Virus record (IMG/VR): IMGVR_UViG_2698536580_000003
Coordinates: 1 to 55,905 of that record
Length of the DNA stretch: 55,905 nt
Origin: a virus
Lineage: Duplodnaviria > Heunggongvirae > Uroviricota > Caudoviricetes
Strand: one strand, 5' to 3'
Shown here: piece by piece, positions 1 through 54,537 of the stretch
How positions within the stretch are numbered: position 1 is the stretch's first letter
Layout: each line of letters opens with the position of its first letter
The notes under the pieces: generated by a model
Seen by the model: the letters and a program-made list of their open reading frames with translations, nothing else
Databases searched by the model: none
Told to the model about the DNA's origin: nothing
Position numbers and translations under genes: made by a program

Positions 1-279
1 GGTGAACGCACTATGGCGACGCTGGGGCGTCTTATGAGCCTGCTGTCACCCTTTGACGTGGTGATATGGATGACGGATGGCTGGCCGCTGTATGAATCCC
101 GCCTGAAGGGAAAGCTGCACGTAATCAGCAAGCGATATACGCAGCGAATTGAGCGGCATAACCTAAATCTGAGGCAGCACCTGGCACGGCTGGGACGGAA
201 GTCGCTGTCGTTCTCAAAATCGGTGGAGCTGCATGACAAAGTCATCGGGCATTATCTGAACATAAAACACTATCAATAA
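1..279 (+). CDS. insB: IS1 transposase InsB, C-terminal fragment (5' end outside window)
   Basis: Translation ...[50 protein letters not shown]... matches IS1 InsB C-terminus from memory. Confidence 0.9.
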
Positions 280-294
280 GTTGGAGTCATTACC
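1..294 (+). mobile_element. IS1 insertion sequence, right-hand portion (remainder outside window)
   Basis: InsB reading frame open from base 1; canonical IS1 terminal inverted repeat atcaataagttggagtcattacc ends at 294. Confidence 0.9.
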
Positions 295-855
295 CAAGTG
301 TTTAAATGGAATAACCTCTGATTCTATATCAGGATTAATACATGAAATAGCGGTAAAATAACATGCCATTTTGTAATAGTTTTCCAAATGTAAACCAGTA
401 CATTCTAAAAACTTATCTTTATAATATAATTCATCATTCAAGCAATACCAAATATACTGTCTTGTTAATGAATTGGCATTAAATTTATCAGTTGATTGAT
501 AAAGCAACTGATTTATCACCATTCGTCTAAGGCTTAGCATAACTTTATCATCAACGATTAAATTAGATGCTTCTAGTTGCAAGTTATAGATTAAGTTGAT
601 AATATCAACAAAATCATTTTTACTCATTTCTTTTGCAGGCTTTTTTTCCTTCATGCAAAACTTCCATTTCATTGCCAGATAGCAACACCAAGGGAAATTG
701 GAAACAATACCCACCTCGACATCCCTTACTTTTTGGAAGTGTTCATAAAAATTTCTCAAAAAAGAAACATCACTAAAATATGACAATCTTTTCTTAATCG
801 CATCAACTTTTATAGAATATGACACTGGTGTCATTGTTTTTATTGCCACGCTCAT
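295..855 (-). CDS. hypothetical protein, 3' end interrupted by the IS1 insertion
   Basis: ORF 214..855 with AAGG-type RBS; frame runs into the IS1 terminal repeat so the native C-terminus is lost or replaced; AT-rich; no motif recognised. Confidence 0.45.
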
Positions 856-1457
856 AAAAAACCTTTTATGATAAACATAGAGAAATATTTTATTTAAAAA
901 TTATCAAATACACGTTAATAAATATACATTTTTTAATTTTGCGTGCAACCCTATCCCCAATCAATACAAAATATTGTGCACACAAAATTGAAGAAGCCTA
1001 TAACTATAGGTGCCTACTGACACCTATCAAGAAACTTGTTCACCCCCGACACAATTTAATTTGGCGTAGCTCACAATGTTCTCCTCAGCACACCTACCCC
1101 CCACTTTATAGGACAGTTTTCATGCAGTACATGCATAAACAAAAGCTCATCAGTTCTGGTGGTTCCTCACCACGAACATGCAGATAATACCTCAAAACAT
1201 CATGTAACAATGTTGGCATTACGCCACCAGCCACAAAAAAGCCCTACCCTTAGGCTTAATGTTTGGCTTGGCTGTTGGCTTACTATAACGCCCCGCTCAC
1301 CGTCGCAGCCTGTTCGGTTTCCGCCACTGATACGGCCTCACATCATCATGCTGATAGATGTCGACGGGCTACCAGTACCATTTGCTCACCAACCCCATAT
1401 TTTCCATGTTAATCTTCTCTTTCCACATGCTTTGTATGGTAATAAGCAAAAGGAAAA

Positions 1458-1715
1458 ATGATGAACACTAAGGTGAAAGAAGCAGTAAAATGTTGGGCTT
1501 CTAGTCCAACGTGGTTTAGCAGGCATCCAATGGATACGGCGGAGTTCCGACGGGCTGTTTCAAATCTCAAGCGCATTACCCCTACCCCATCTTTCGAAGA
1601 AATCAAAGAAGCGATCATGTTCTTTGTTTCCGATGCGCCAACAATGCTAGGTACGCCGTCGGATATTCCTCAGGCGGTTCATGACTTCGCTGGAAAAATT
1701 TATAACAAGCTGTGA
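1458..1715 (+). CDS. hypothetical small protein (85 aa)
   Basis: ORF with AAGGA RBS (aaggaaaaATG); followed by hairpin. Confidence 0.4.
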   Translation: MMNTKVKEAVKCWASSPTWFSRHPMDTAEFRRAVSNLKRITPTPSFEEIKEAIMFFVSDAPTMLGTPSDIPQAVHDFAGKIYNKL

Positions 1716-1742
1716 GCAAAATGCGGGCTATCCCAGCCCGCA
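1714..1742 (-). terminator. putative intrinsic terminator hairpin between convergent genes
   Basis: Perfect 7-bp stem GCGGGCT/AGCCCGC (1723-1729 / 1735-1741) with 5-nt loop; T-run follows on minus strand. Confidence 0.5.
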
Positions 1743-1749
1743 TCCCTAA

Positions 1750-1959
1750 TTAACGCCGTAACTTGTTTGGCTTCGTCCATTGGTACGCCTTTTCGTTTTC
1801 CCGCCGCTGGTGGCGTTCCTGTTGCAGCACAACGGAAACAGGCGCTGAACACCTGTTAATTTTGCTTGCTGGTTGTTTGATTCCGGCAATGCTGCGGATC
1901 ATCTCCAGCATATCGGCTTCGGTGATGGTCATAGGTTTCCTATCAGCACTCATATCCAA
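1750..1959 (-). CDS. hypothetical small protein (69 aa)
   Basis: ORF directly downstream of 1982..2566 in same orientation; ends before terminator hairpin. Confidence 0.4.
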   Translation of the reverse strand: MDMSADRKPMTITEADMLEMIRSIAGIKQPASKINRCSAPVSVVLQQERHQRRENEKAYQWTKPNKLRR

Positions 1960-1981
1960 TTAATAAGTTCAATACAATGGA

Positions 1982-2566
1982 TTATCCCGTTTTAGTGACT
2001 AACCATTGCAGAATAACGATAATTAAATATGTTAATGTGCCAGTTCCAAGAAGTATTAATAATTGATAGCAACGTAGGGCAATATTACTAATCGATTTTT
2101 GCATCACGATATTCACTGGCTCAGCCACACACTCTTTAGATCTTATCGATAGAATACTTGGAACTTCTCTATTTATTGATAATATTTCACATTGAATAGA
2201 CTCACCAGGTGCAAGGCTTTCAAACTTGATAATATAGCGACCATCCTGTTCAATATTTTCTTCAAAATGGTGGACAGGCCAAAAATTAATATGCATTGGC
2301 TTATAGTTAAAAACCAATGAGATATTAGTAGCACTTTCTCGCCCTTCATTAACAAGAATAATAGATCGTGTATACACCAACTGTGAATTAGATATTACCT
2401 CACCATTGGCATTCCGTAAGGGTTCATTGAGAAGAAAAGTAAATCCATGCTGATAACCATAGGATAACTTTGCCTTGCTTTTAAATCTGTTATTCAGTAT
2501 CCATGTTAAAATCGTTATAAAAAAAGAAAATAGTTCTTTCCCATAAAGACTAAAAAAACTCATCAC
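1982..2566 (-). CDS. hypothetical membrane protein (N- and C-terminal hydrophobic segments)
   Basis: 194-aa ORF; hydrophobic stretches FFITILTWIL and LLILLGTGTLTYLIIVILQWLV; AT-rich. Confidence 0.5.
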   Translation of the reverse strand: MMSFFSLYGKELFSFFITILTWILNNRFKSKAKLSYGYQHGFTFLLNEPLRNANGEVISNSQLVYTRSIILVNEGRESATNISLVFNYKPMHINFWPVHHFEENIEQDGRYIIKFESLAPGESIQCEILSINREVPSILSIRSKECVAEPVNIVMQKSISNIALRCYQLLILLGTGTLTYLIIVILQWLVTKTG

Positions 2567-2685
2567 ACATTTCCTTCAGTAATCTGATTCTGCTGTCAAA
2601 GCTACCAGCACTATAGTCATTCATCCACATTGCGACAAGAAGGTTACAGCACGTCCAATCACACCTTAGGAAATCTTAGGGGGCT

Positions 2686-2960
2686 GGTTGACACTTTCCG
2701 GCTTAAGACCTTAATAAATCTTAATATCGCAGGTTGACACACTTGACACTTTTTCGCGAAAAACCTTAGCATTTCTAAGCATGGCAACTTGACATTTTTC
2801 GCGGTTTTTTCGGCTTTTTGACGTGGTAAATCTGGCACAAACCCAGTAATTGCGGGGCTTACAGCGAGGTTGACACTTTTTCGCGTTCAGAGTGTAAAGT
2901 GTCAACCTGGCAACCTGGCAAGCTGGCAAGCTGGCAAGCTGCTCAACTTGACACTTTTTG
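2686..2960. repeat. array of about 7 copies of GTTGACACTTTTTCGCG-like motif, plus a 12-bp perfect inverted repeat and a (CTGGCAAG)n octamer tandem tract
   Basis: TTGACAC at approx 2688, 2733, 2742, 2788, 2817 (variant), 2869, 2948 and inverted at 2897; GGTTGACACTTT / AAAGTGTCAACC inverted pair 2868-2879 / 2897-2908; octamers 2906-2942. Confidence 0.75.
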
Positions 2961-2963
2961 ATG

Positions 2964-3509
2964 TCATTGATGGTCTGATTTTTCCCACTCAGCCAGGGCG
3001 TTTAACCCGGCTTCACTCCATGATTCCGGTTCATCGGGATAATCACCTGCAACATAGCAGAGTTCGCAACGCAGCATACGAATTGCCAGCCTGGCATTAC
3101 CTCGCAAATTGTATTTTTCAAAGTAATGCTGCCCTTCATCATCCTCAAGGCAGATAGCACCATCATCAAGAAAGTGCACTTCCCAGCCTAATTCCCCGGC
3201 TGCATACAGCACACGCTGCTGTATGCCCTCGTCCGTTACTGGCGCAGGAATTTTACCGTCTCTGGCCTTAACTGCTTTCCAGAACTCGCCCCATGTCATT
3301 TCCAGCGTTCTTTCTGGCCACATTTCAGAAATGGTGTCTTTCCCCTGTGCTGGTGGGCTGTTCCGCTGCTCTGTCGCTTCCACATCAATTTTTTTACCGG
3401 ACATGACCACTTCGCCTTTCTCGAGCCAGTCGTAAACTGTCTGGCGGCTTACGCCTTTGTATTTGGCGTATTCGGCTTTACTCATCAACATGTAGCTCAC
3501 CTCATGCAT
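2964..3509 (-). CDS. HTH DNA-binding protein with acidic C-terminal domain (function unknown; possibly packaging or regulatory)
   Basis: N-terminal KAEYAKYKGVSRQTVYDWLEKGEV helix-turn-helix-like segment; start codon uncertain (several Met near N-terminus). Confidence 0.55.
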   Translation of the reverse strand: MHEVSYMLMSKAEYAKYKGVSRQTVYDWLEKGEVVMSGKKIDVEATEQRNSPPAQGKDTISEMWPERTLEMTWGEFWKAVKARDGKIPAPVTDEGIQQRVLYAAGELGWEVHFLDDGAICLEDDEGQHYFEKYNLRGNARLAIRMLRCELCYVAGDYPDEPESWSEAGLNALAEWEKSDHQ

Positions 3510-3590
3510 ATACGATAAAAAATAATTTCATGCGGAAAGGGAATGCGTTGTGGGTATGGAGGAAAGGGGCAATAACCGCCCCTTACTGAT

Positions 3591-3863
3591 TCAGTTGCGC
3601 CAGGATGGCTGGCTAAGCGTGGTTTTCATTACATCATTGACGACCTGTTTTACGATTTCTGTGTTGGCAGTCGTGCTTTCAACATCAACAAAGCCATAAT
3701 CGCCAATTTCCACCGTCAGGGATTCCAGTTTCTTCCCTAGAGCATCAGGCAACTCTCCACTGAACCGATGCTGAAGATTTTCCACCAGCAACGCCCTGAA
3801 TGCCTCGCTGTTCTCTTTTTTCTGCCATAGCTGGCGTTTATCCACTCTGATATTTAATTTCAC
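3591..3863 (-). CDS. hypothetical protein (90 aa)
   Basis: ORF overlapping upstream small gene by 4 bp. Confidence 0.45.
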   Translation of the reverse strand: MKLNIRVDKRQLWQKKENSEAFRALLVENLQHRFSGELPDALGKKLESLTVEIGDYGFVDVESTTANTEIVKQVVNDVMKTTLSQPSWRN

Positions 3864-4027
3864 AGTCTCACCTCTTTAAGTGCCTTATCCATCAGTTGCC
3901 GAGCGATAACATGAATCGACGGTGCCACACCAAGCACAGATTTCTGACGCTCTTCGTCCTGGATGCGTTGCAGGGCTTCGATCTGCCTCCGGGAAAGTAA
4001 AACTGGCTTTACTCCGTGATTTTTCAT
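3860..4027 (-). CDS. hypothetical small protein (about 55 aa), start trimmed from ORF 3860..4189
   Basis: Internal Met MKNHGVKPVLLSRRQIEALQ... preceded by AGGGA RBS; upstream part of the long ORF is Cys-rich and not protein-like. Confidence 0.4.
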   Translation of the reverse strand: MKNHGVKPVLLSRRQIEALQRIQDEERQKSVLGVAPSIHVIARQLMDKALKEVRL

Positions 4028-4295
4028 GATGATCCCTTCTGAATGACAATAATTGCAATTATTGCACAAATTGAAATGATACCAGAGACAATTGCAATAA
4101 ATGAAACGAAAAGCATCAATAAACCAACCTTCGGCACTGAATGCTCTGATTTTTCTGCAAAGGTATGGCAGATGCAAACATAAAGGCAATAGCAGAAGAA
4201 GCAGCGGGGAGTGAAAAGGGGAAGTTTTTATAAATACACGATTGTCGCCTCACTGCAGGTTAACAGCCACAAGCTCCATGATAATAACTTGTTAA

Positions 4296-4619
4296 TTATT
4301 TCATCAGATTTTTCATTATTTGCGCGATTGAGTACACAAGCAAAAACTCGGCAGCCGCAAGAGTATAAAAAACATAAATTCGCTTAGCCCACCGACGATG
4401 AAAGAACTCCTCAGCATGGCCGGATGTTCGAGATACAAGCCATGCACCTACTGCACACAGAGCAGGTGCAATGAGCACAGTTATAAACCAGATTGTGATG
4501 CCCATCCCATGCCTACTGATAATAGCCATTGGTATTGCAAAAATGAATGTTAGAGCAGCATTAGCTAATAGAATATCTTTTAAAGTATTTTCAATTAGTT
4601 TTGCTAGATTATCTTTCAT
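4296..4619 (-). CDS. small integral membrane protein (107 aa)
   Basis: Multiple hydrophobic helices (ALTFIFAIPMAII, ITIWFITVLIAPALCAVGAWLV, FLLVYSIAQIM). Confidence 0.55.
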   Translation of the reverse strand: MKDNLAKLIENTLKDILLANAALTFIFAIPMAIISRHGMGITIWFITVLIAPALCAVGAWLVSRTSGHAEEFFHRRWAKRIYVFYTLAAAEFLLVYSIAQIMKNLMK

Positions 4620-4683
4620 CTAATCCCCCACGTTGAACATTAATATATAAAAGCCCCTTACTAAGGGGCTTTGCACGGATTGT

Positions 4684-5826
4684 TTAAAGGGAACTTTTTT
4701 TCGCCCCTTCAATTTCTGCCTGACAAATTTCGTCATTTGTAAATGAGTACTGCAGATAGACATATCCCTGAGTGGAATTGTTCGCTCTGGCCTCAATAGA
4801 TATAGTATCAATATTGTTTTTTAATGGTATTTCTTTTGTTCCCTTCCATGTGGCAGATAAGAAGCGTTCTTTTTTGTTTAGCCCCCTCATCCAGTCCTGA
4901 GGATCTTTCCAAATTGAACCAGCCAGCAAAAAGTCTGTAGTATCAGCCTTTCCATACAGAGAACTTAAAGAATTACTCAATTCTTCAAACTTGGATTTAA
5001 GAGCCAATCCATAGCTATCAGTATCAATATTTTTTCCTAAAGCCCGTATTTGACATAAACCAGCTTTCGGGGAGATCAGCAAACCATACATTTCAAAATC
5101 TGCGTTTTGCTTCGGTAATTTATCAGAAGTATACAGATTCACACTGTCTGGTAGTGGCTTGAGCTTAGCACCGATCATATCTTCGATGTTTTTCTGTGTA
5201 AGACCGGCTTCTAAGCCAAACGGACCATCCGCTGGCGGGAGTAAAGGAAGTTGCTCTTGGGAATTTTTGGCTGTTACTTCCGTTTCAGTACTGTTTTTTG
5301 CGTCATTAGCTTGTACTGATGCCAGCTTAACTTCAGCGAGGCCATACTTGGCTGTGAGGTACTTTTGCTGCAACATTGCCATGGTCTGCTCTTCAGTGGC
5401 AACAGTAGATAATTTTAGTACCTTTATCAGACCACCACTATACTGACGAGCATCAGCTTTGGCTTCGTTGATTTTTGCATCTAAGCTGTCAATTTCAGTT
5501 TTAATTGAAGCCGCAAGCTCAGGATCAGGTTTTACTCCAGATACAACAACATCAATTTTGGCACCTGATTCAATAGCATTAATACGCTGTTCCAAAAGCG
5601 CTTTATTAGTTCCTAATATTTCCAGTCTTGCTGTTGTCAGATTTTTTATCAACCCACCAGAAAACTGCTGGTCAACTTCCTTAGCTGCTGATATTTCACC
5701 TTCCGTTTGCGACAGTTCAGCTTTAAGAGCAGCTACTTCCTGTTTCTGTTCTGGAGTTAACTCTTCTGGCCCACATCCGGTTAACATTACTATACCGACT
5801 AATGTTGCAATTAAAGTTTTATTCAT
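4684..5826 (-). CDS. lipoprotein with coiled-coil region and internal QYSGGLIK / QFSGGLIK repeats
   Basis: Signal peptide with lipobox LTGC near N-terminus (MNKTLIATLVGIVMLTGC); 380 aa. Confidence 0.7.
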   Translation of the reverse strand: MNKTLIATLVGIVMLTGCGPEELTPEQKQEVAALKAELSQTEGEISAAKEVDQQFSGGLIKNLTTARLEILGTNKALLEQRINAIESGAKIDVVVSGVKPDPELAASIKTEIDSLDAKINEAKADARQYSGGLIKVLKLSTVATEEQTMAMLQQKYLTAKYGLAEVKLASVQANDAKNSTETEVTAKNSQEQLPLLPPADGPFGLEAGLTQKNIEDMIGAKLKPLPDSVNLYTSDKLPKQNADFEMYGLLISPKAGLCQIRALGKNIDTDSYGLALKSKFEELSNSLSSLYGKADTTDFLLAGSIWKDPQDWMRGLNKKERFLSATWKGTKEIPLKNNIDTISIEARANNSTQGYVYLQYSFTNDEICQAEIEGAKKSSL

Positions 5827-5960
5827 ATCCCTATTCCAAATGAAAATATTCAGATTAATCTTATCAGGAACCCAGATGCAATTGAATATTCATCTGCTCA
5901 GCAACGTAGTAGATTTCCTCAGAAAGCATCAACAAAAAACCAAGAGAATCCCATCCTCTG

Positions 5961-6248
5961 TTACTGACTACAATTGTTCTTTTTTTGGTATTTCCTGAAT
6001 GCCTCACCATTGGGCTGATGTAATCCCATCCCGGCATGTGCCCGGCTGATGGTTTCGCGCATCTCCCCGAAATTATCCTGCCTTGCTGGTGGGCGTGCTG
6101 CCTTGTGGATACATTCCGCGCGACGTTTTGCCGCCTGTTCCCGTGCCTTGTCATCATTCGCCAGCATGATGACCTCAGCCCACCGCGCCGCCGCTCTCCG
6201 GTACAGACCACGCGCTTCCAGTGCTTCCGCTTTGCTGTCGTGAATCAT
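5961..6248 (-). CDS. PerC-family transcriptional regulator (start set at internal Met to give ATGA overlap)
   Basis: Motif LEARGLYRRAAARWAEV resembles PerC/Pch signature as recalled. Confidence 0.55.
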   Translation of the reverse strand: MIHDSKAEALEARGLYRRAAARWAEVIMLANDDKAREQAAKRRAECIHKAARPPARQDNFGEMRETISRAHAGMGLHQPNGEAFRKYQKKNNCSQ

Positions 6249-6787
6249 GCGCCTATTGTCTCCTTTGCTGCCCGGCACTGGCGTTTGCGCTTCTCATTCA
6301 GCGCCACCAGCCGCGTTTCTGCGTCCTGTTGTTCCTGTGGTGTCACCTCGCCGCACGGCTGGCCTTTCAGGTCGTAGCGTACCCCACCAGCCATTAAGGC
6401 GCGGTAATAGCGCGGACACTGCGCATAAGATGCCAGCGTCGCACGCAATGCCCCTGGCCCGAATGCCAGCCCCCTGGCGGCGAGATCCTGCATCAGGTCG
6501 TCGAATATCCCCACCTTAAGCGGCTTCAGTGCTTCCCGGCTGAATAAGTCAGGCCACAACTCAGTGAGGCGGTTAACGCGCCTGCGGTTTTTGCGCTGGC
6601 GTTTGGTCATATGCCGCCACGGTGTCGCCCCTGTAGGCTTCTGCTGCGCTTTCTGGTTACCGGGCATCACTTTATGCGCCGATGTGGTTTTATCCTGCTC
6701 CTGTGCCGCCTGCGTCGTTTTCTGCGGCGTGCCGTAAATACCTTTTGGTTTTCTGTTAATGGTCAGCTTAGTCATGCTTTGCCCCAT
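6245..6787 (-). CDS. ProQ/FinO-domain RNA-binding protein
   Basis: Segment LWPDLFS...PLKVGIFDDLMQDL...LRATLASYAQCPRYYRALMAGGVRYDLKGQPCGEVTPQEQQDAETRL parallels ProQ N-terminal FinO domain (PLKIGIFQDL...LRSALRLYTSSWRYL...RVDLDGNPCGEL) as recalled. Confidence 0.7.
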   Translation of the reverse strand: MGQSMTKLTINRKPKGIYGTPQKTTQAAQEQDKTTSAHKVMPGNQKAQQKPTGATPWRHMTKRQRKNRRRVNRLTELWPDLFSREALKPLKVGIFDDLMQDLAARGLAFGPGALRATLASYAQCPRYYRALMAGGVRYDLKGQPCGEVTPQEQQDAETRLVALNEKRKRQCRAAKETIGA

Positions 6788-6795
6788 CGTTACAA

Positions 6796-7132
6796 CTGTC
6801 TACCAACTGTCTACCGATATAATTGATTGATTTATTTAATGTTATTAACACATAACAAAAAAACAATCTGCAAACTGTCTACCAACGGTCTACCGCATTA
6901 ATACATTGATAATTAATGATTTTTACTAAATGGTAGACAGTGTAGACAGTTAAAAGAGAAATTTAAAAAATGCCCCCTTAACTATCTGTTTTTTATATAC
7001 CCCCCGTGGTTTAGGAATATAGAAATAACTGTCTACCTCTCTACTACATTGAAAATATCTTTATAATTCAAAATATTAATTGGTAGATGGTTGGTAGAGG
7101 GTTAAGTGAATCTGTCTACCAACCGTCTACCT
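6796..7132. repeat. iteron cluster, putative satellite replication origin (ori/crr-like)
   Basis: At least 10 copies of CTGTCTACC / GGTAGACAG (direct and inverted) at 6796, 6808, 6875, 6886, 6932, 6941, 7029, 7082, 7093, 7112, 7124, interspersed with AT-rich tracts, immediately downstream of the primase gene. Confidence 0.65.
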
Positions 7133-7158
7133 TTACGTTTCAGCTTATAAATTTCGTA

Positions 7159-8964
7159 TTATGTTCTGTCGTTAATCCCTGTAGCTGCTGGCAACCAGCC
7201 ATCAGCATCATCATCTAACAGAACATTTGTTATCACTCGCCCTTTATCCGGGCCTTTAGTGCATTTAGCCCGCTTATACTCCTTTCCGTATTCCGCCATA
7301 GCTCCTGGCATATCAGTACCAAAGCGTGTCAGTGATACTGGTTTTCCCAGGCCATGCGCTGACATATAGGCTAAATAAGCATGATACAGGTATCGCCTCG
7401 GGCTAAATGGCACTATTTCCGCATTGCCCACCATCATTCCTTCACATTTAACCAACGACATCAGATAGCCGCAAAAGTCCACCAGTGAATCACCTTCGCG
7501 CTTTATCAACAGCGCTTCTTCTGATTTTTGCTGCTCATAAAGTAGTCTTTTAGCTTCGTCCTGGTCGGTAAATCGTGTTAGCAAATGGCGAATCACTACC
7601 GCCAGTTCGCCTTCTATCTTTTCCGCCAGCATGGGATCGCGTTCGTTCTCCGGTACGACCTCAGAGAAATTAAATATCACCCTACGACGCGAGATCCCCC
7701 CGCTTCGGTCACTGAATGACATGGCGTTATTGTTTACCGCAAGCACTACTGCCGGAATACGTGTGGAGTAGGGGGCTTTATGTTTCGGATCAATTGCCAC
7801 CTTGTCGCCGCCAGTAATTGCCTTAATTCCTGCACCATCGCCAGCGTAGCGAGTCATATCCGGCATGATAATCAGCGAAAAGCCAACTACTAACGCGCGT
7901 TCCCTTGCGTCTTCCAGAGCCTTCATGCTTGCCGATACTGTGTTGGCCTTACCCGCCAGCATGGTACAAATCTCAGCCATCACACTTTTACCGCTTCCGC
8001 CTGGGCCTGTTACCTCAAGGAATAACTGCCAGTCGTACCGGTTCGCCAGCACCATGAATAATGCCGCCAGTACGCGATCAGCTTTACGATCATTATCTGC
8101 CACCGAACGACGCAGCCACTTCCAGAAATTCGGCGCATGTGTTGCCAGCGTTTCCCCCTCTGCTGGTGGGCTGAACGGTAATTCACTGGCATTTAACAAC
8201 CAGTCATTTTTGTTATGCTCCCGAAAATTTCCCGTCCGGGTATCAAATACCCCGTTACTGAATCCAATAAGATTCCTGTCTGCCCCGCCCATAACAGGCA
8301 GGCTCAATTTCATTGTGTCTACGGCAAATTTAATGGCGTTTTGCGAATAACTGATTCCAGCATCAATAAAAATCTTCGCCATAGACCGCTGGAGTTCCTT
8401 ATCAGATACAGGCACCCAGACAATTCCGTTGTAATGGTGAACTACATCAGAATCATCATTTATAGCCAGTGCTCTTCCATAATATTCAAGTAACACTTCC
8501 CCTCTCTGGCTGGCTCCCATCTGATTTAGTGCTGGCCTAGATAGGTCAATATTTTTTGTGGCTAATTTCATCGCTGAAACTTCCCCACTCTCTGCCTGTT
8601 CGCGGATCCGTTGCAGGTAGTCGCGCCAGTTTTCCGGCTCCCGGTCGGTGATACCTTTGTATAATTTCGCGTCCTGTACACCAGCCAGCGCCAGCTTTTC
8701 AGCAATAGCATTGATCTGGATTGGCTCTATCTCCCCCGCGAGATAGACACGCGCAAAGCGGCGTTCATCGTCGACAATGCGGATATTCGCCAGGTCTGCC
8801 AGTTGCTTTGGCCCCAGGTAAACAGGAGGCACGTTATCGCCGTGTTTTCGTCCTTCGCTTTCAATCCAGTGTTGAGCATGGGCGTAAGCATCCGTCCCAG
8901 CAAAAATGATTACCTCGGTGAATTTATCCTTCGGCTGATATTTTAAATTCGGTGCGTTTTTCAC
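7159..8964 (-). CDS. P4 alpha-like primase/helicase (D5-type NTPase)
   Basis: 601 aa; Walker A TGPGGSGKSV; overall resemblance to satellite-phage primases. Confidence 0.8.
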   Translation of the reverse strand: MKNAPNLKYQPKDKFTEVIIFAGTDAYAHAQHWIESEGRKHGDNVPPVYLGPKQLADLANIRIVDDERRFARVYLAGEIEPIQINAIAEKLALAGVQDAKLYKGITDREPENWRDYLQRIREQAESGEVSAMKLATKNIDLSRPALNQMGASQRGEVLLEYYGRALAINDDSDVVHHYNGIVWVPVSDKELQRSMAKIFIDAGISYSQNAIKFAVDTMKLSLPVMGGADRNLIGFSNGVFDTRTGNFREHNKNDWLLNASELPFSPPAEGETLATHAPNFWKWLRRSVADNDRKADRVLAALFMVLANRYDWQLFLEVTGPGGSGKSVMAEICTMLAGKANTVSASMKALEDARERALVVGFSLIIMPDMTRYAGDGAGIKAITGGDKVAIDPKHKAPYSTRIPAVVLAVNNNAMSFSDRSGGISRRRVIFNFSEVVPENERDPMLAEKIEGELAVVIRHLLTRFTDQDEAKRLLYEQQKSEEALLIKREGDSLVDFCGYLMSLVKCEGMMVGNAEIVPFSPRRYLYHAYLAYMSAHGLGKPVSLTRFGTDMPGAMAEYGKEYKRAKCTKGPDKGRVITNVLLDDDADGWLPAATGINDRT

Positions 8965-54459: not shown

Positions 54460-54507
54460 AATGGTGCCGATAATAGGAGTCGAACCTACGACCTTCGCAT
54501 TACGAAT
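54460..54507. repeat. att direct repeat (within tRNA-Thr 3' half), partner of 15356-15403
   Basis: 48-bp identity to 15356-15403. Confidence 0.85.
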
Positions 54508-54537
54508 GCGCTGCTCTACCAACTGAGCTATATCGGC
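54462..54537 (-). tRNA. thrW: tRNA-Thr (anticodon CGU)
   Basis: Reverse complement reads GCCGATATAGCTCAGTTGGTAGAGCAGCGCATTCGTAATGCGAAGGTCGTAGGTTCGACTCCTATTATCGGCACCA, a 76-nt cloverleaf with CGT anticodon. Confidence 0.9.

Follow-up and report, generated by a model that had tools for sequence, protein, structure and literature searches.

We analyzed the region from position 295 to 5826 of a 55,905-nt stretch of viral DNA (Caudoviricetes; IMG/VR record IMGVR_UViG_2698536580_000003; hereafter, the window) and compared it with related islands of Escherichia coli and other genera. The comparison indicates that this region is probably the int-distal (3') half of a phage-inducible chromosomal island (PICI) with tRNA-Thr (thrW) as its integration site, and that it consists of a backbone located beyond the origin of replication (the post-ori backbone) and an immunity hotspot at the 3' end of the island. 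On the basis of a presence matrix, genome counts and estimates of selection, we determined that positions 2687–5826 are, in the islands compared, a fixed backbone, and that only positions 295–2686 behave as exchangeable cargo.

Backbone and exchangeable part of a tRNA-Thr island

In a megablast search against 5,426 complete E. coli genomes, many islands matched the window from approximately position 2686/2708 rightwards at ~95% identity and showed no match leftwards, with breakpoints at 2686–2708. The segment from 2964 to 5826 was nearly complete in 110 of the 5,426 genomes, and the segment from 856 to 2690 was complete in only five, with 88 genomes matching the cargo segment in some part. Eight annotated E. 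coli islands were fetched, seven of which (L001–L007) entered a tblastn presence matrix, and the eighth (L016, from an O104:H4 strain) was fetched afterwards. Five backbone genes, encoding Lpp380, TM107, p55, p90 and HTH175, were present in all seven matrix islands at 80–100% protein identity. These genes were kept regardless of whether the distal genes encoded GapS1, PARIS, a restriction-modification (RM)-like system, a DUF4747 pair or a zinc-ribbon pair, and regardless of whether the replicase was a DUF5906 primase, a DUF927 protein (O104:H4 2011C-3493) or a RepA helicase (UTAK-5). The uncorrected ratio of nonsynonymous to synonymous differences (pN/pS) relative to relatives was 0.05–0.31 for the five backbone genes and 0.27–0.41 for p193, one of the cargo genes; no usable comparison was obtained for p60, another of them. 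Homologues were found across genera for Lpp380, HTH175 and p193, and the open reading frames (ORFs) of the region are, judging from their sequences, more than chance ORFs. The ORFs and the insertion sequence IS1 listed in the initial annotation are real and lie where it had placed them, with the ORFs of the region on the minus strand, and the comparison with related satellites that it had proposed as a check located the variable part at 295–2686.

The outbreak strain of 2011, O104:H4 2011C-3493, carries the island as well (L016; NC_018658.1, 4124520–4141392). The Lpp380, TM107, p55, HTH175 and PerC proteins are identical in this island and in that of E. coli K56-43-un, the annotations giving the same accessions for HTH175, p55, TM107 and Lpp380; L016 has a DUF927 replicase instead of the DUF5906 primase, and PARIS in its hotspot. 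Because L016 pairs a DUF927 replicase with identical post-ori proteins, the replication module is swapped independently of the post-ori module. The primase gene is frameshifted in K56-43-un (L001, 12873–14679) and intact in the window, and the PerC gene is frameshifted in the PARIS-carrying islands (L003, 9062–9350; L004, 9282–9570) and likewise intact in the window. UTAK-5 has a second variable region (L002, 9534–12886), flanked by the replicase and ProQ/FinO genes and containing IS66 and IS1 fragments, a gene for an SDH-family Clp-fold serine protease and small ORFs. This second region fits the 'middle' accessory region that, according to a published description (PMC11364771), some PICIs have beside pri.

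The assignment to the PICIs follows from the gene content and order to the right of the region. We obtained Pfam profile matches in the window for a tyrosine integrase (13977–15191), AlpA (12708–12905; PF05930, E = 2e-19), an AntA antirepressor and DUF4222, all encoded on the same strand as the block of genes under study, and domain matches for a D5_N/DUF5906 primase at 7159–8964. Iterons of the sequence AACTGTCTACC (repeat families D1, D2 and I2–I5) occupy positions 6790–7150, between the primase and ProQ/FinO genes. An integrase, an AlpA-type regulator, a primase and adjacent ori iterons are thus present in the order conserved among PICIs, which agrees with the satellite identity and with the location distal to the primase and ori that had been proposed initially. 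The stretch from 295 to 15403 measures ~15.1 kb, within the 10–20 kb range of PICIs, and intact relatives are ~16 kb long. No phage structural or lysis genes were found between 295 and 15403 in the ORF list or by Pfam scans. A 48-bp copy of the tRNA-Thr 3' end is located at 15356–15403 and a second copy at 54460–54507, the tRNA-Thr gene itself being at 54462–54537.

The same tRNA-Thr site is also occupied, in tandem with the PICI, by a complete SfII/SfIV-like prophage (15404–54459), whose head and terminase genes are 97–98% identical to those of SfII/SfIV-like phages. PICIs are expected at attachment (att) sites that prophages leave unused, and in this respect the present island differs, as the tandem prophage shares its tRNA-Thr site. 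Owing to this tandem arrangement, the SfII-like prophage is an obvious helper candidate; the 48-bp att repeat is the sole sequence common to the island and the prophage.

The overall order, int, AlpA, antirepressor, pri/rep, ori iterons, post-ori genes and 3' accessory genes, is that of EcCICFT073, EcCIEDL933 and EcCIMP1. The island shares with Gram-negative PICIs a PerC-family gene and the lack of structural or lysis genes in the visible ~15 kb. EcCIMP1, a characterized PICI, lies between the chromosomal genes proA and yagU, the same flanks as here (PMC11773190), and in some strains a vat/marR islet adjoins this site. Unlike these three PICIs, the present island has other post-ori genes and lacks Rpp, a lambda-like cosQ/cosN and DNA-transfer-like genes.

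Several further features surround the region. The origin region has a GC content of 31% and contains AACTGTCTACC iterons, at least six in number, both direct and inverted. Between it and the region under study lie, both on the minus strand, genes for a ProQ/FinO-family protein (6245–6775; FinO/ProQ NCBIfam matches) and a PerC-family regulator (5961–6248; PF06069, E = 1.8e-31). A 512-aa minus-strand ORF at 10250–11788 overlies several small genes annotated in relatives (Icd-like, YlcI/YnfO on the opposite strand, and others) and is probably not one real gene. An Rfam scan of positions 1–16000 identified no RNA family. The region had been described as AT-rich, which holds on average (GC content 40.8%, compared with 48.6% for the window), with an uneven distribution: 29.9% for gapS1 and 32.8% for p193, and 46–50% for HTH175, p55 and p90.

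Contents of the 3'-end hotspot

The inner boundary of the hotspot, and with it the boundary between backbone and cargo, coincides with a repeat array next to the HTH175 gene (described below). The hotspot extends from this array to the island end, with contents that would be exchanged by homologous recombination across conserved flanks, and in the window it holds p193, p60, p85 and gapS1. Immune systems have been reported to sit at the 5' or 3' ends of PICIs (PMC11364771), and the 3'-end slot is for this reason a known kind of locus. We searched the slot in sister islands with PADLOC models and found PARIS at the terminal slot of one E. coli island (AriA, E = 3e-43; AriB, E = 4e-22); another E. 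coli island had there an NsnA/PD-T4-2-like DUF262 protein together with a type II methyltransferase. In an Enterobacter island, PADLOC identified a PDC-S20 KAP NTPase between the lipoprotein pair and the HTH gene, that is, not in the terminal slot. The suggestion of the initial annotation that this satellite carries a defence hotspot is thus borne out for the distal end, where sister islands have PARIS or an RM-like system, and is too broad in its extent, since only 295–2686 is variable. Two further occupants were observed: a DUF4747 protein with a 199-aa protein in E. coli N921 (L006, 4249–5741), and, in E. coli WWCOL-236 (L007, 2992–5411), a protein of 229 aa paired with a zinc-ribbon protein of 576 aa. 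Neither pair had a PADLOC match, and both are candidates for new defence systems.

This arrangement resembles the immunity hotspots of P4-like satellites and PICIs (Rousset 2022; Fillol-Salom 2022, cited in PMC11364771), in which unrelated defence systems interchange at a fixed position at the satellite end. Indeed, PARIS, first described in P4 hotspots, fills this slot in sister islands, including that of O104:H4 2011C-3493. Unlike in the P4 hotspots, the satellite backbone is a different one, the boundary is the HTH175 repeat array, and several occupants (p193, the DUF4747 pair, and the pair of the 229-aa and zinc-ribbon proteins) have no PADLOC match.

In the window, the outermost visible gene of the hotspot is interrupted. 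Positions 1–294 contain the 3' part of an IS1 on the plus strand (C-terminus of InsB at 13–279), as determined by direct reading of the sequence and from relatives, in which an IS1 family transposase is annotated; base 294 is the last of the right inverted repeat of this IS1 (...ATCAATAAGTTGGAGTCATTACC). The adjoining gene fragment (295–855, minus strand) comprises codons 1–187 of the 532 codons of gapS1. The fragment shares 186 of 187 residues (99%) with the intact 532-aa protein of E. coli K56-43-un, and matches the N-terminal part of the NCBIfam GapS1 model (NF047931; E = 1.3e-42, 146.3 bits, residues 20–175 on profile positions 1–157 of 455). Its score lies below the family cut-off of 320 bits, which the intact K56-43-un allele exceeds (440.7 bits). 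The initial statement that none of the proteins belongs to a recognized family is accordingly wrong for this gene.

GAPS1 has been characterized as a single-protein anti-phage defence that is triggered by a phage capsid protein, leading to dormancy, and that requires for protection a PD-(D/E)xK site (D313/K328 in the Vibrio GAPS1) (bioRxiv 10.1101/2023.03.28.534373). Intact GapS1 senses the phage capsid protein and arrests growth through its PD-(D/E)xK domain. Unlike in GAPS1, IS1 cuts the gene ahead of this domain and has removed codons 188–532 together with the motif; the gene is for this reason a pseudogene whose effector is gone, and, as its truncated reading frame indicates, the GapS1 defence is dead in the window. 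A gapS1 allele of this type was found in only six complete E. coli genomes, where an intact and nearly identical 532-aa form (WP_001526660) occupies the same place.

The gene for the 193-aa protein p193 (1982–2563, minus strand) was examined by hydropathy analysis and an exhaustive HMMER family search. A C-terminal transmembrane (TM) segment was predicted at residues 167–185, and a hydrophobic stretch at residues ~11–23 was recognized by eye, below the TM threshold, so that hydrophobic segments at both ends flank a conserved central domain. The family comprises at least 454 cluster representatives (E < 1e-3), nearly all ~190–200 aa long and with full-length matches. We found no credible Pfam match for 52 diverse members (one chance-level match to influenza CM2, E = 0.004) and no match of the family profile to the Protein Data Bank (PDB). 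In the present E. coli island family, p193 occurs beside GapS1 or beside the DUF4747 pair. In the Enterobacter island, a homologue with 53% identity occupies another position on the opposite strand; in a Hafnia PICI integrated at fis, the homologue is the last gene, after a Terminase_2 TerS; and in Serratia, it is alone in a chromosomal islet. Other contexts were an integrase with a DUF4917 protein, a resolvase with an integrase, an AAA_22 gene cluster and the accessory region of a capsid-encoding element. Across these contexts, p193 consistently appears as a mobile stand-alone cargo gene, behaving as defence or exclusion genes do.

Next to it lies the gene for p60 (1750–1932, minus strand), which by hydropathy is a basic hydrophilic protein of 60 aa. 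In the presence matrix, p60, a semi-conserved component of the hotspot's inner edge, was found in five of the seven E. coli islands; its 5' part also recurs in many of the 88 genomes with a match to the cargo segment. Only weak matches, to PHROGs without assigned function, were obtained. The two genes had been taken together as a membrane protein operon (1750–2566), which is half right: p193 has a TM segment, but p60 is hydrophilic and basic, and p60 and p193 occur independently of each other in other islands.

The initial annotation missed an ORF on the plus strand at 1458–1715, which encodes the 85-aa hypothetical protein p85, annotated in relatives as WP_226474079.1. Scans of the profile libraries gave no family match. 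Among the fetched loci, p85 occurred only in L001 and L002, the two islands with an intact gapS1; a strict linkage between p85 and gapS1 was rejected, as in EC23-1020 the match to the gapS1 allele ends short of p85. Many other genomes keep only two short pieces here, from 1223 to ~1355 and from 1806 to 1932 (the 5' part of p60). Because only these flanking pieces are conserved elsewhere, the stretch from ~1354 to 1805, which contains p85, may have been inserted or replaced specifically in the GapS1-type cargo.

Functions proposed for the backbone genes

The backbone gene adjoining the hotspot (2964–3491, minus strand) encodes HTH175, a protein of 175 aa. In the AlphaFold2 (AF2) model (predicted local distance difference test [pLDDT] 86), residues 1–44 form a winged helix, followed by a disordered linker and an alpha/beta domain at residues 60–170 (pLDDT ~95). 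The winged helix is of the Xis/TerS/Rpp type, and the C-terminal domain has no close structural match. In sequence searches, residues 5–48 matched the TerS family phrog_57 (E = 2e-6), matches to excisionases being weak, and the N-terminus of one phage TerS matched residues 3–40 as the sole tblastn hit. The homology to core packaging functions that the initial annotation had named as an argument against cargo is thus present in a weak form, a resemblance of the first ~45 residues to TerS, Xis and Rpp DNA-binding domains. No protein of the region could be assigned to capsid remodelling.

HTH175 was not assigned to either packaging family. Like Rpp, it has at its N-terminus a winged helix-turn-helix similar to the DNA-binding domain of TerS; membership in the Rpp family was rejected, as neither phmmer nor a 33-member family profile matched RppC (6hn7) in the PDB. 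HTH175 further differs from Rpp in length (175 versus 139–154 aa), in having an alpha/beta rather than a helical C-terminal domain, in the lack of sequence similarity and in being accompanied by a multi-copy array instead of an upstream cosQ-cosN-R3; in cos-rpp islands, cos lies upstream of the gene and there are no repeated R sites (PMC9026076). Membership among the TerS proteins was rejected because the HTH alone aligns, with no oligomerization core and no Pfam Terminase family. No similarity was found between HTH175 and the TerS of the adjacent SfII-like phage.

Directly 3' of the HTH175 gene, repeat finding and a motif scan revealed an array (2683–2963) of 11-bp repeats, AAAGTGT(C/A)AA(C/G), in both orientations, together with 8-bp tandem repeats of CTTGCCAG. 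The array contains at least seven copies of the motif; these 270 bp account for seven of the window's ten matches, compared with 3.85 expected for the whole window. The first ~42 residues of HTH175 are nearly invariant across the family, which fits the conserved motif of the array. Homologues of HTH175 were found with the same array in Klebsiella islands (56% protein identity) and in the Enterobacter island (37%), the array being present in L008, L009 and L011. In Klebsiella pneumoniae (L008–L010), the HTH homologue (10001–10516) and the array close a primase-bearing island. The Klebsiella island sits among prophage tail and baseplate genes, with Dit-like and Pam3_gp18 genes duplicated on both sides, and islands in such a late-gene region resemble published helper-embedded satellites. 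In the Hafnia fis-PICI, the slot equivalent to that of HTH175 holds the Terminase_2 TerS.

The adjacency of a protein of the Xis/BldC/TerS class to an array of likely sites suggests that HTH175 may bind there cooperatively, in the manner of Xis, BldC and lambda TerS on their repeats. The array-bound protein would mark the satellite DNA for the packaging machinery of the helper. Possibly, though we lean against it, HTH175 and the array instead act as an Xis/BldC/Cox-type unit with a DNA-architectural or regulatory role, for example as a recombination directionality factor (RDF) or a repressor or activator of transcription into the hotspot. The winged helix is shared with Xis, but the whole cargo, more than 2.4 kb, separates the array from the island end in E. 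coli, a distance too great for an RDF; no copy of the motif was found near the att repeat at 15356–15403; AlpA is already present on the island; and TerS occupies the equivalent slot of a related PICI. For the same reasons of distance and motif absence, the array was rejected as a set of integrase arm-type or RDF sites in E. coli. A role in packaging recognition is favored because TerS holds the HTH175 slot in the related PICI, because the island lacks Rpp, TerS and a lambda-type cosN, and because an RDF is unlikely at this distance from the end with no motif near att.

At the other end of the region, the 380-aa protein Lpp380 (4684–5826, minus strand) was examined by homologue alignment and an AF2 model. 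It has a lipobox (MLTGC, matching the pattern [LVI][ASTVI][GAS]C) with Cys18 and a Gly at +2, and residues G17, C18, G19 and P20 are invariant in 29 homologues. The internal repeats QQFSGGLIKNL (53–63) and RQYSGGLIKVL (127–137) form the turns of two helical hairpins in the AF2 model, which are followed by a Pro-rich linker that is invariant and by an alpha/beta domain at the C-terminus; Cys258 and Cys368 are invariant in the alignment. We identified 318 homologue clusters; among the 120 listed, every named match belonged to the Enterobacterales, with 59–99% identity and no Pfam domain. No homologue was found in 50,697 phage records. The pN/pS ratio of 0.11 indicates strong purifying selection. 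TM107 (4296–4619, minus strand), a 107-aa inner-membrane protein with three TM segments by hydropathy, always accompanies Lpp380 in the E. coli islands and in the Enterobacter island (68% identity). Between the two genes, on the same strand, lies a strong terminator-like hairpin (4650–4672) with a 10-bp stem, AAAGCCCCTT/AAGGGGCTTT, followed by a T-rich tail.

From these features, Lpp380 would be targeted to the outer membrane, with a disulphide-bonded C-terminal domain in the periplasm, and TM107 would be its three-TM partner in the inner membrane. With low confidence, and as the least supported step of our interpretation, we propose that the pair may act at the cell envelope, its most likely effect being the exclusion or modulation of incoming phage. 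It is unlikely that the pair is instead related to lysis (spanin- or holin-like) or serves as a host-fitness or virulence factor comparable to Bor, Iss or TraT. The size and three-TM layout of TM107 are those of class I holins, Lpp380 is a lipoprotein with coiled-coil hairpins in the AF2 model, and the neighboring PerC belongs to a virulence-regulator family; moreover, lambdoid phages have lipoprotein morons conferring serum resistance. However, the charged C-terminal tail that characterizes typical holins is missing from TM107, Lpp380 greatly exceeds o-spanins in size and is devoid of a C-terminal TM, the terminator separates the two genes, and the absence of homologues from the phage genomes searched would be unexpected for lysis genes. 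A link between PerC and a 78-aa gene upstream of the lipoprotein gene in the Enterobacter island was also considered and rejected, as the two show no similarity.

The remaining two backbone genes, p55 (3860–4027) and p90 (3591–3863), lie on the minus strand with a 4-nt overlap (GTGA), so that the 90-aa p90 is translationally coupled to p55, a basic protein of 55 aa (pI 10.5). Each gene has a good ribosome-binding site, and operator-like inverted repeats with TTGCAAT motifs (4047–4103; inverted repeat I10 and direct repeat D11) lie just upstream of p55. In the seven E. coli matrix islands, p90 is 98–100% and p55 93–100% identical, and the pN/pS of p90 is 0.05–0.11; the pair is absent from the Klebsiella and Enterobacter relatives. 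Judging from its sequence and pI, p55 is possibly a small DNA-binding protein, perhaps of the ribbon-helix-helix type, and the two would form a small autoregulated regulator and its partner behind an operator-like palindrome. PDB matches of p90 to plant LRR kinases were taken as compositional noise, because no single stretch passed.

The initial annotation had compared p55 and p90 with an antitoxin–toxin pair. Their layout is indeed that of type II toxin–antitoxin (TA) systems, with two small overlapping co-directional genes, the first of them basic and the second of ~90 codons, behind a palindrome suiting autoregulation. That they form a type II TA or addiction module stabilizing the island is nevertheless quite improbable: no toxin, antitoxin or other family was matched in Pfam, NCBIfam, PADLOC, PHROGs or the PDB, p55 is too short to have, in addition to a DNA-binding fold, an extension that neutralizes a toxin, and the pair is fixed in all E. 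coli islands compared and missing from the related islands of other genera, whereas TA pairs are usually patchily mobile.

Finally, that the whole of 295–5826 is variable accessory cargo of the satellite, for defence or virulence, as initially proposed, is very unlikely. In its favor, the region has a higher AT content than the DNA around it, its position downstream of pri/ori is that of the 'middle' accessory region of some PICIs (PMC11364771), and none of its intact genes had a recognized satellite life-cycle function in the library scans. Against it, 2687–5826 is kept at ~95–100% identity in islands with other distal cargo and replicases, other genera have island types that contain the Lpp380/TM107 pair or HTH175, and all backbone genes are under purifying selection.

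Several observations weigh against parts of the interpretation as a PICI backbone with a hotspot and phage-directed functions. The first base of the window is already inside IS1, and the island end beyond IS1 falls outside the window, so that the extent of the cargo given here is that of its visible part. The 52 diverse members of the p193 family have no PADLOC match, and none is found in PHROGs; the link of p193 to defence comes from its gene context, by which it would be a candidate membrane-anchored exclusion or abortive-infection factor. The fold match of HTH175 covers only ~47 residues and is equally compatible with an excisionase, a regulator or TerS. In the satellite, we found no lambda-type cosN and no GGGCGGCGACCT-like site, and the island and the adjacent prophage have no packaging-site sequence in common. 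In addition, the array lies downstream of the HTH175 gene, unlike in the cos-rpp or cos-terS layouts. For Lpp380, no significant structural match was obtained, and its AF2 model is of moderate quality (pLDDT 64).

Significance for PICIs and their phages

Nothing in these results is categorically new, as PICIs, end-located immunity hotspots and satellite defence cargo are already established, and the sole recognizable defence gene in the region, gapS1, is dead. The results map the boundary of such a hotspot to a specific repeat array, in a PICI family found in ~2% of complete E. coli genomes, including that of the O104:H4 outbreak strain. Since this island family has no Rpp, TerS or lambda-type cos, HTH175 and its array constitute a concrete packaging candidate. 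In addition, p193 and Lpp380/TM107 are widespread, conserved and absent from every library searched, and thus provide testable leads, while the two PADLOC-negative gene pairs in the same slot of sister islands are further defence candidates.

We consider it possible, though on balance doubtful, that at least one of the intact units (p193, HTH175 with its array, or Lpp380/TM107) represents a new mechanism of interaction with phages, p193 and HTH175 with its array being the main candidates. If so, the p193 family would be a new single-gene, membrane-anchored anti-phage system, acting by exclusion or abortive infection and moving between satellite hotspots; Lpp380/TM107 would be a satellite-borne envelope defence without homologue in the phage collection searched; and HTH175 with the AAAGTGTMAAC array would be a new way of redirecting helper packaging, distinct from Rpp and from satellite TerS.

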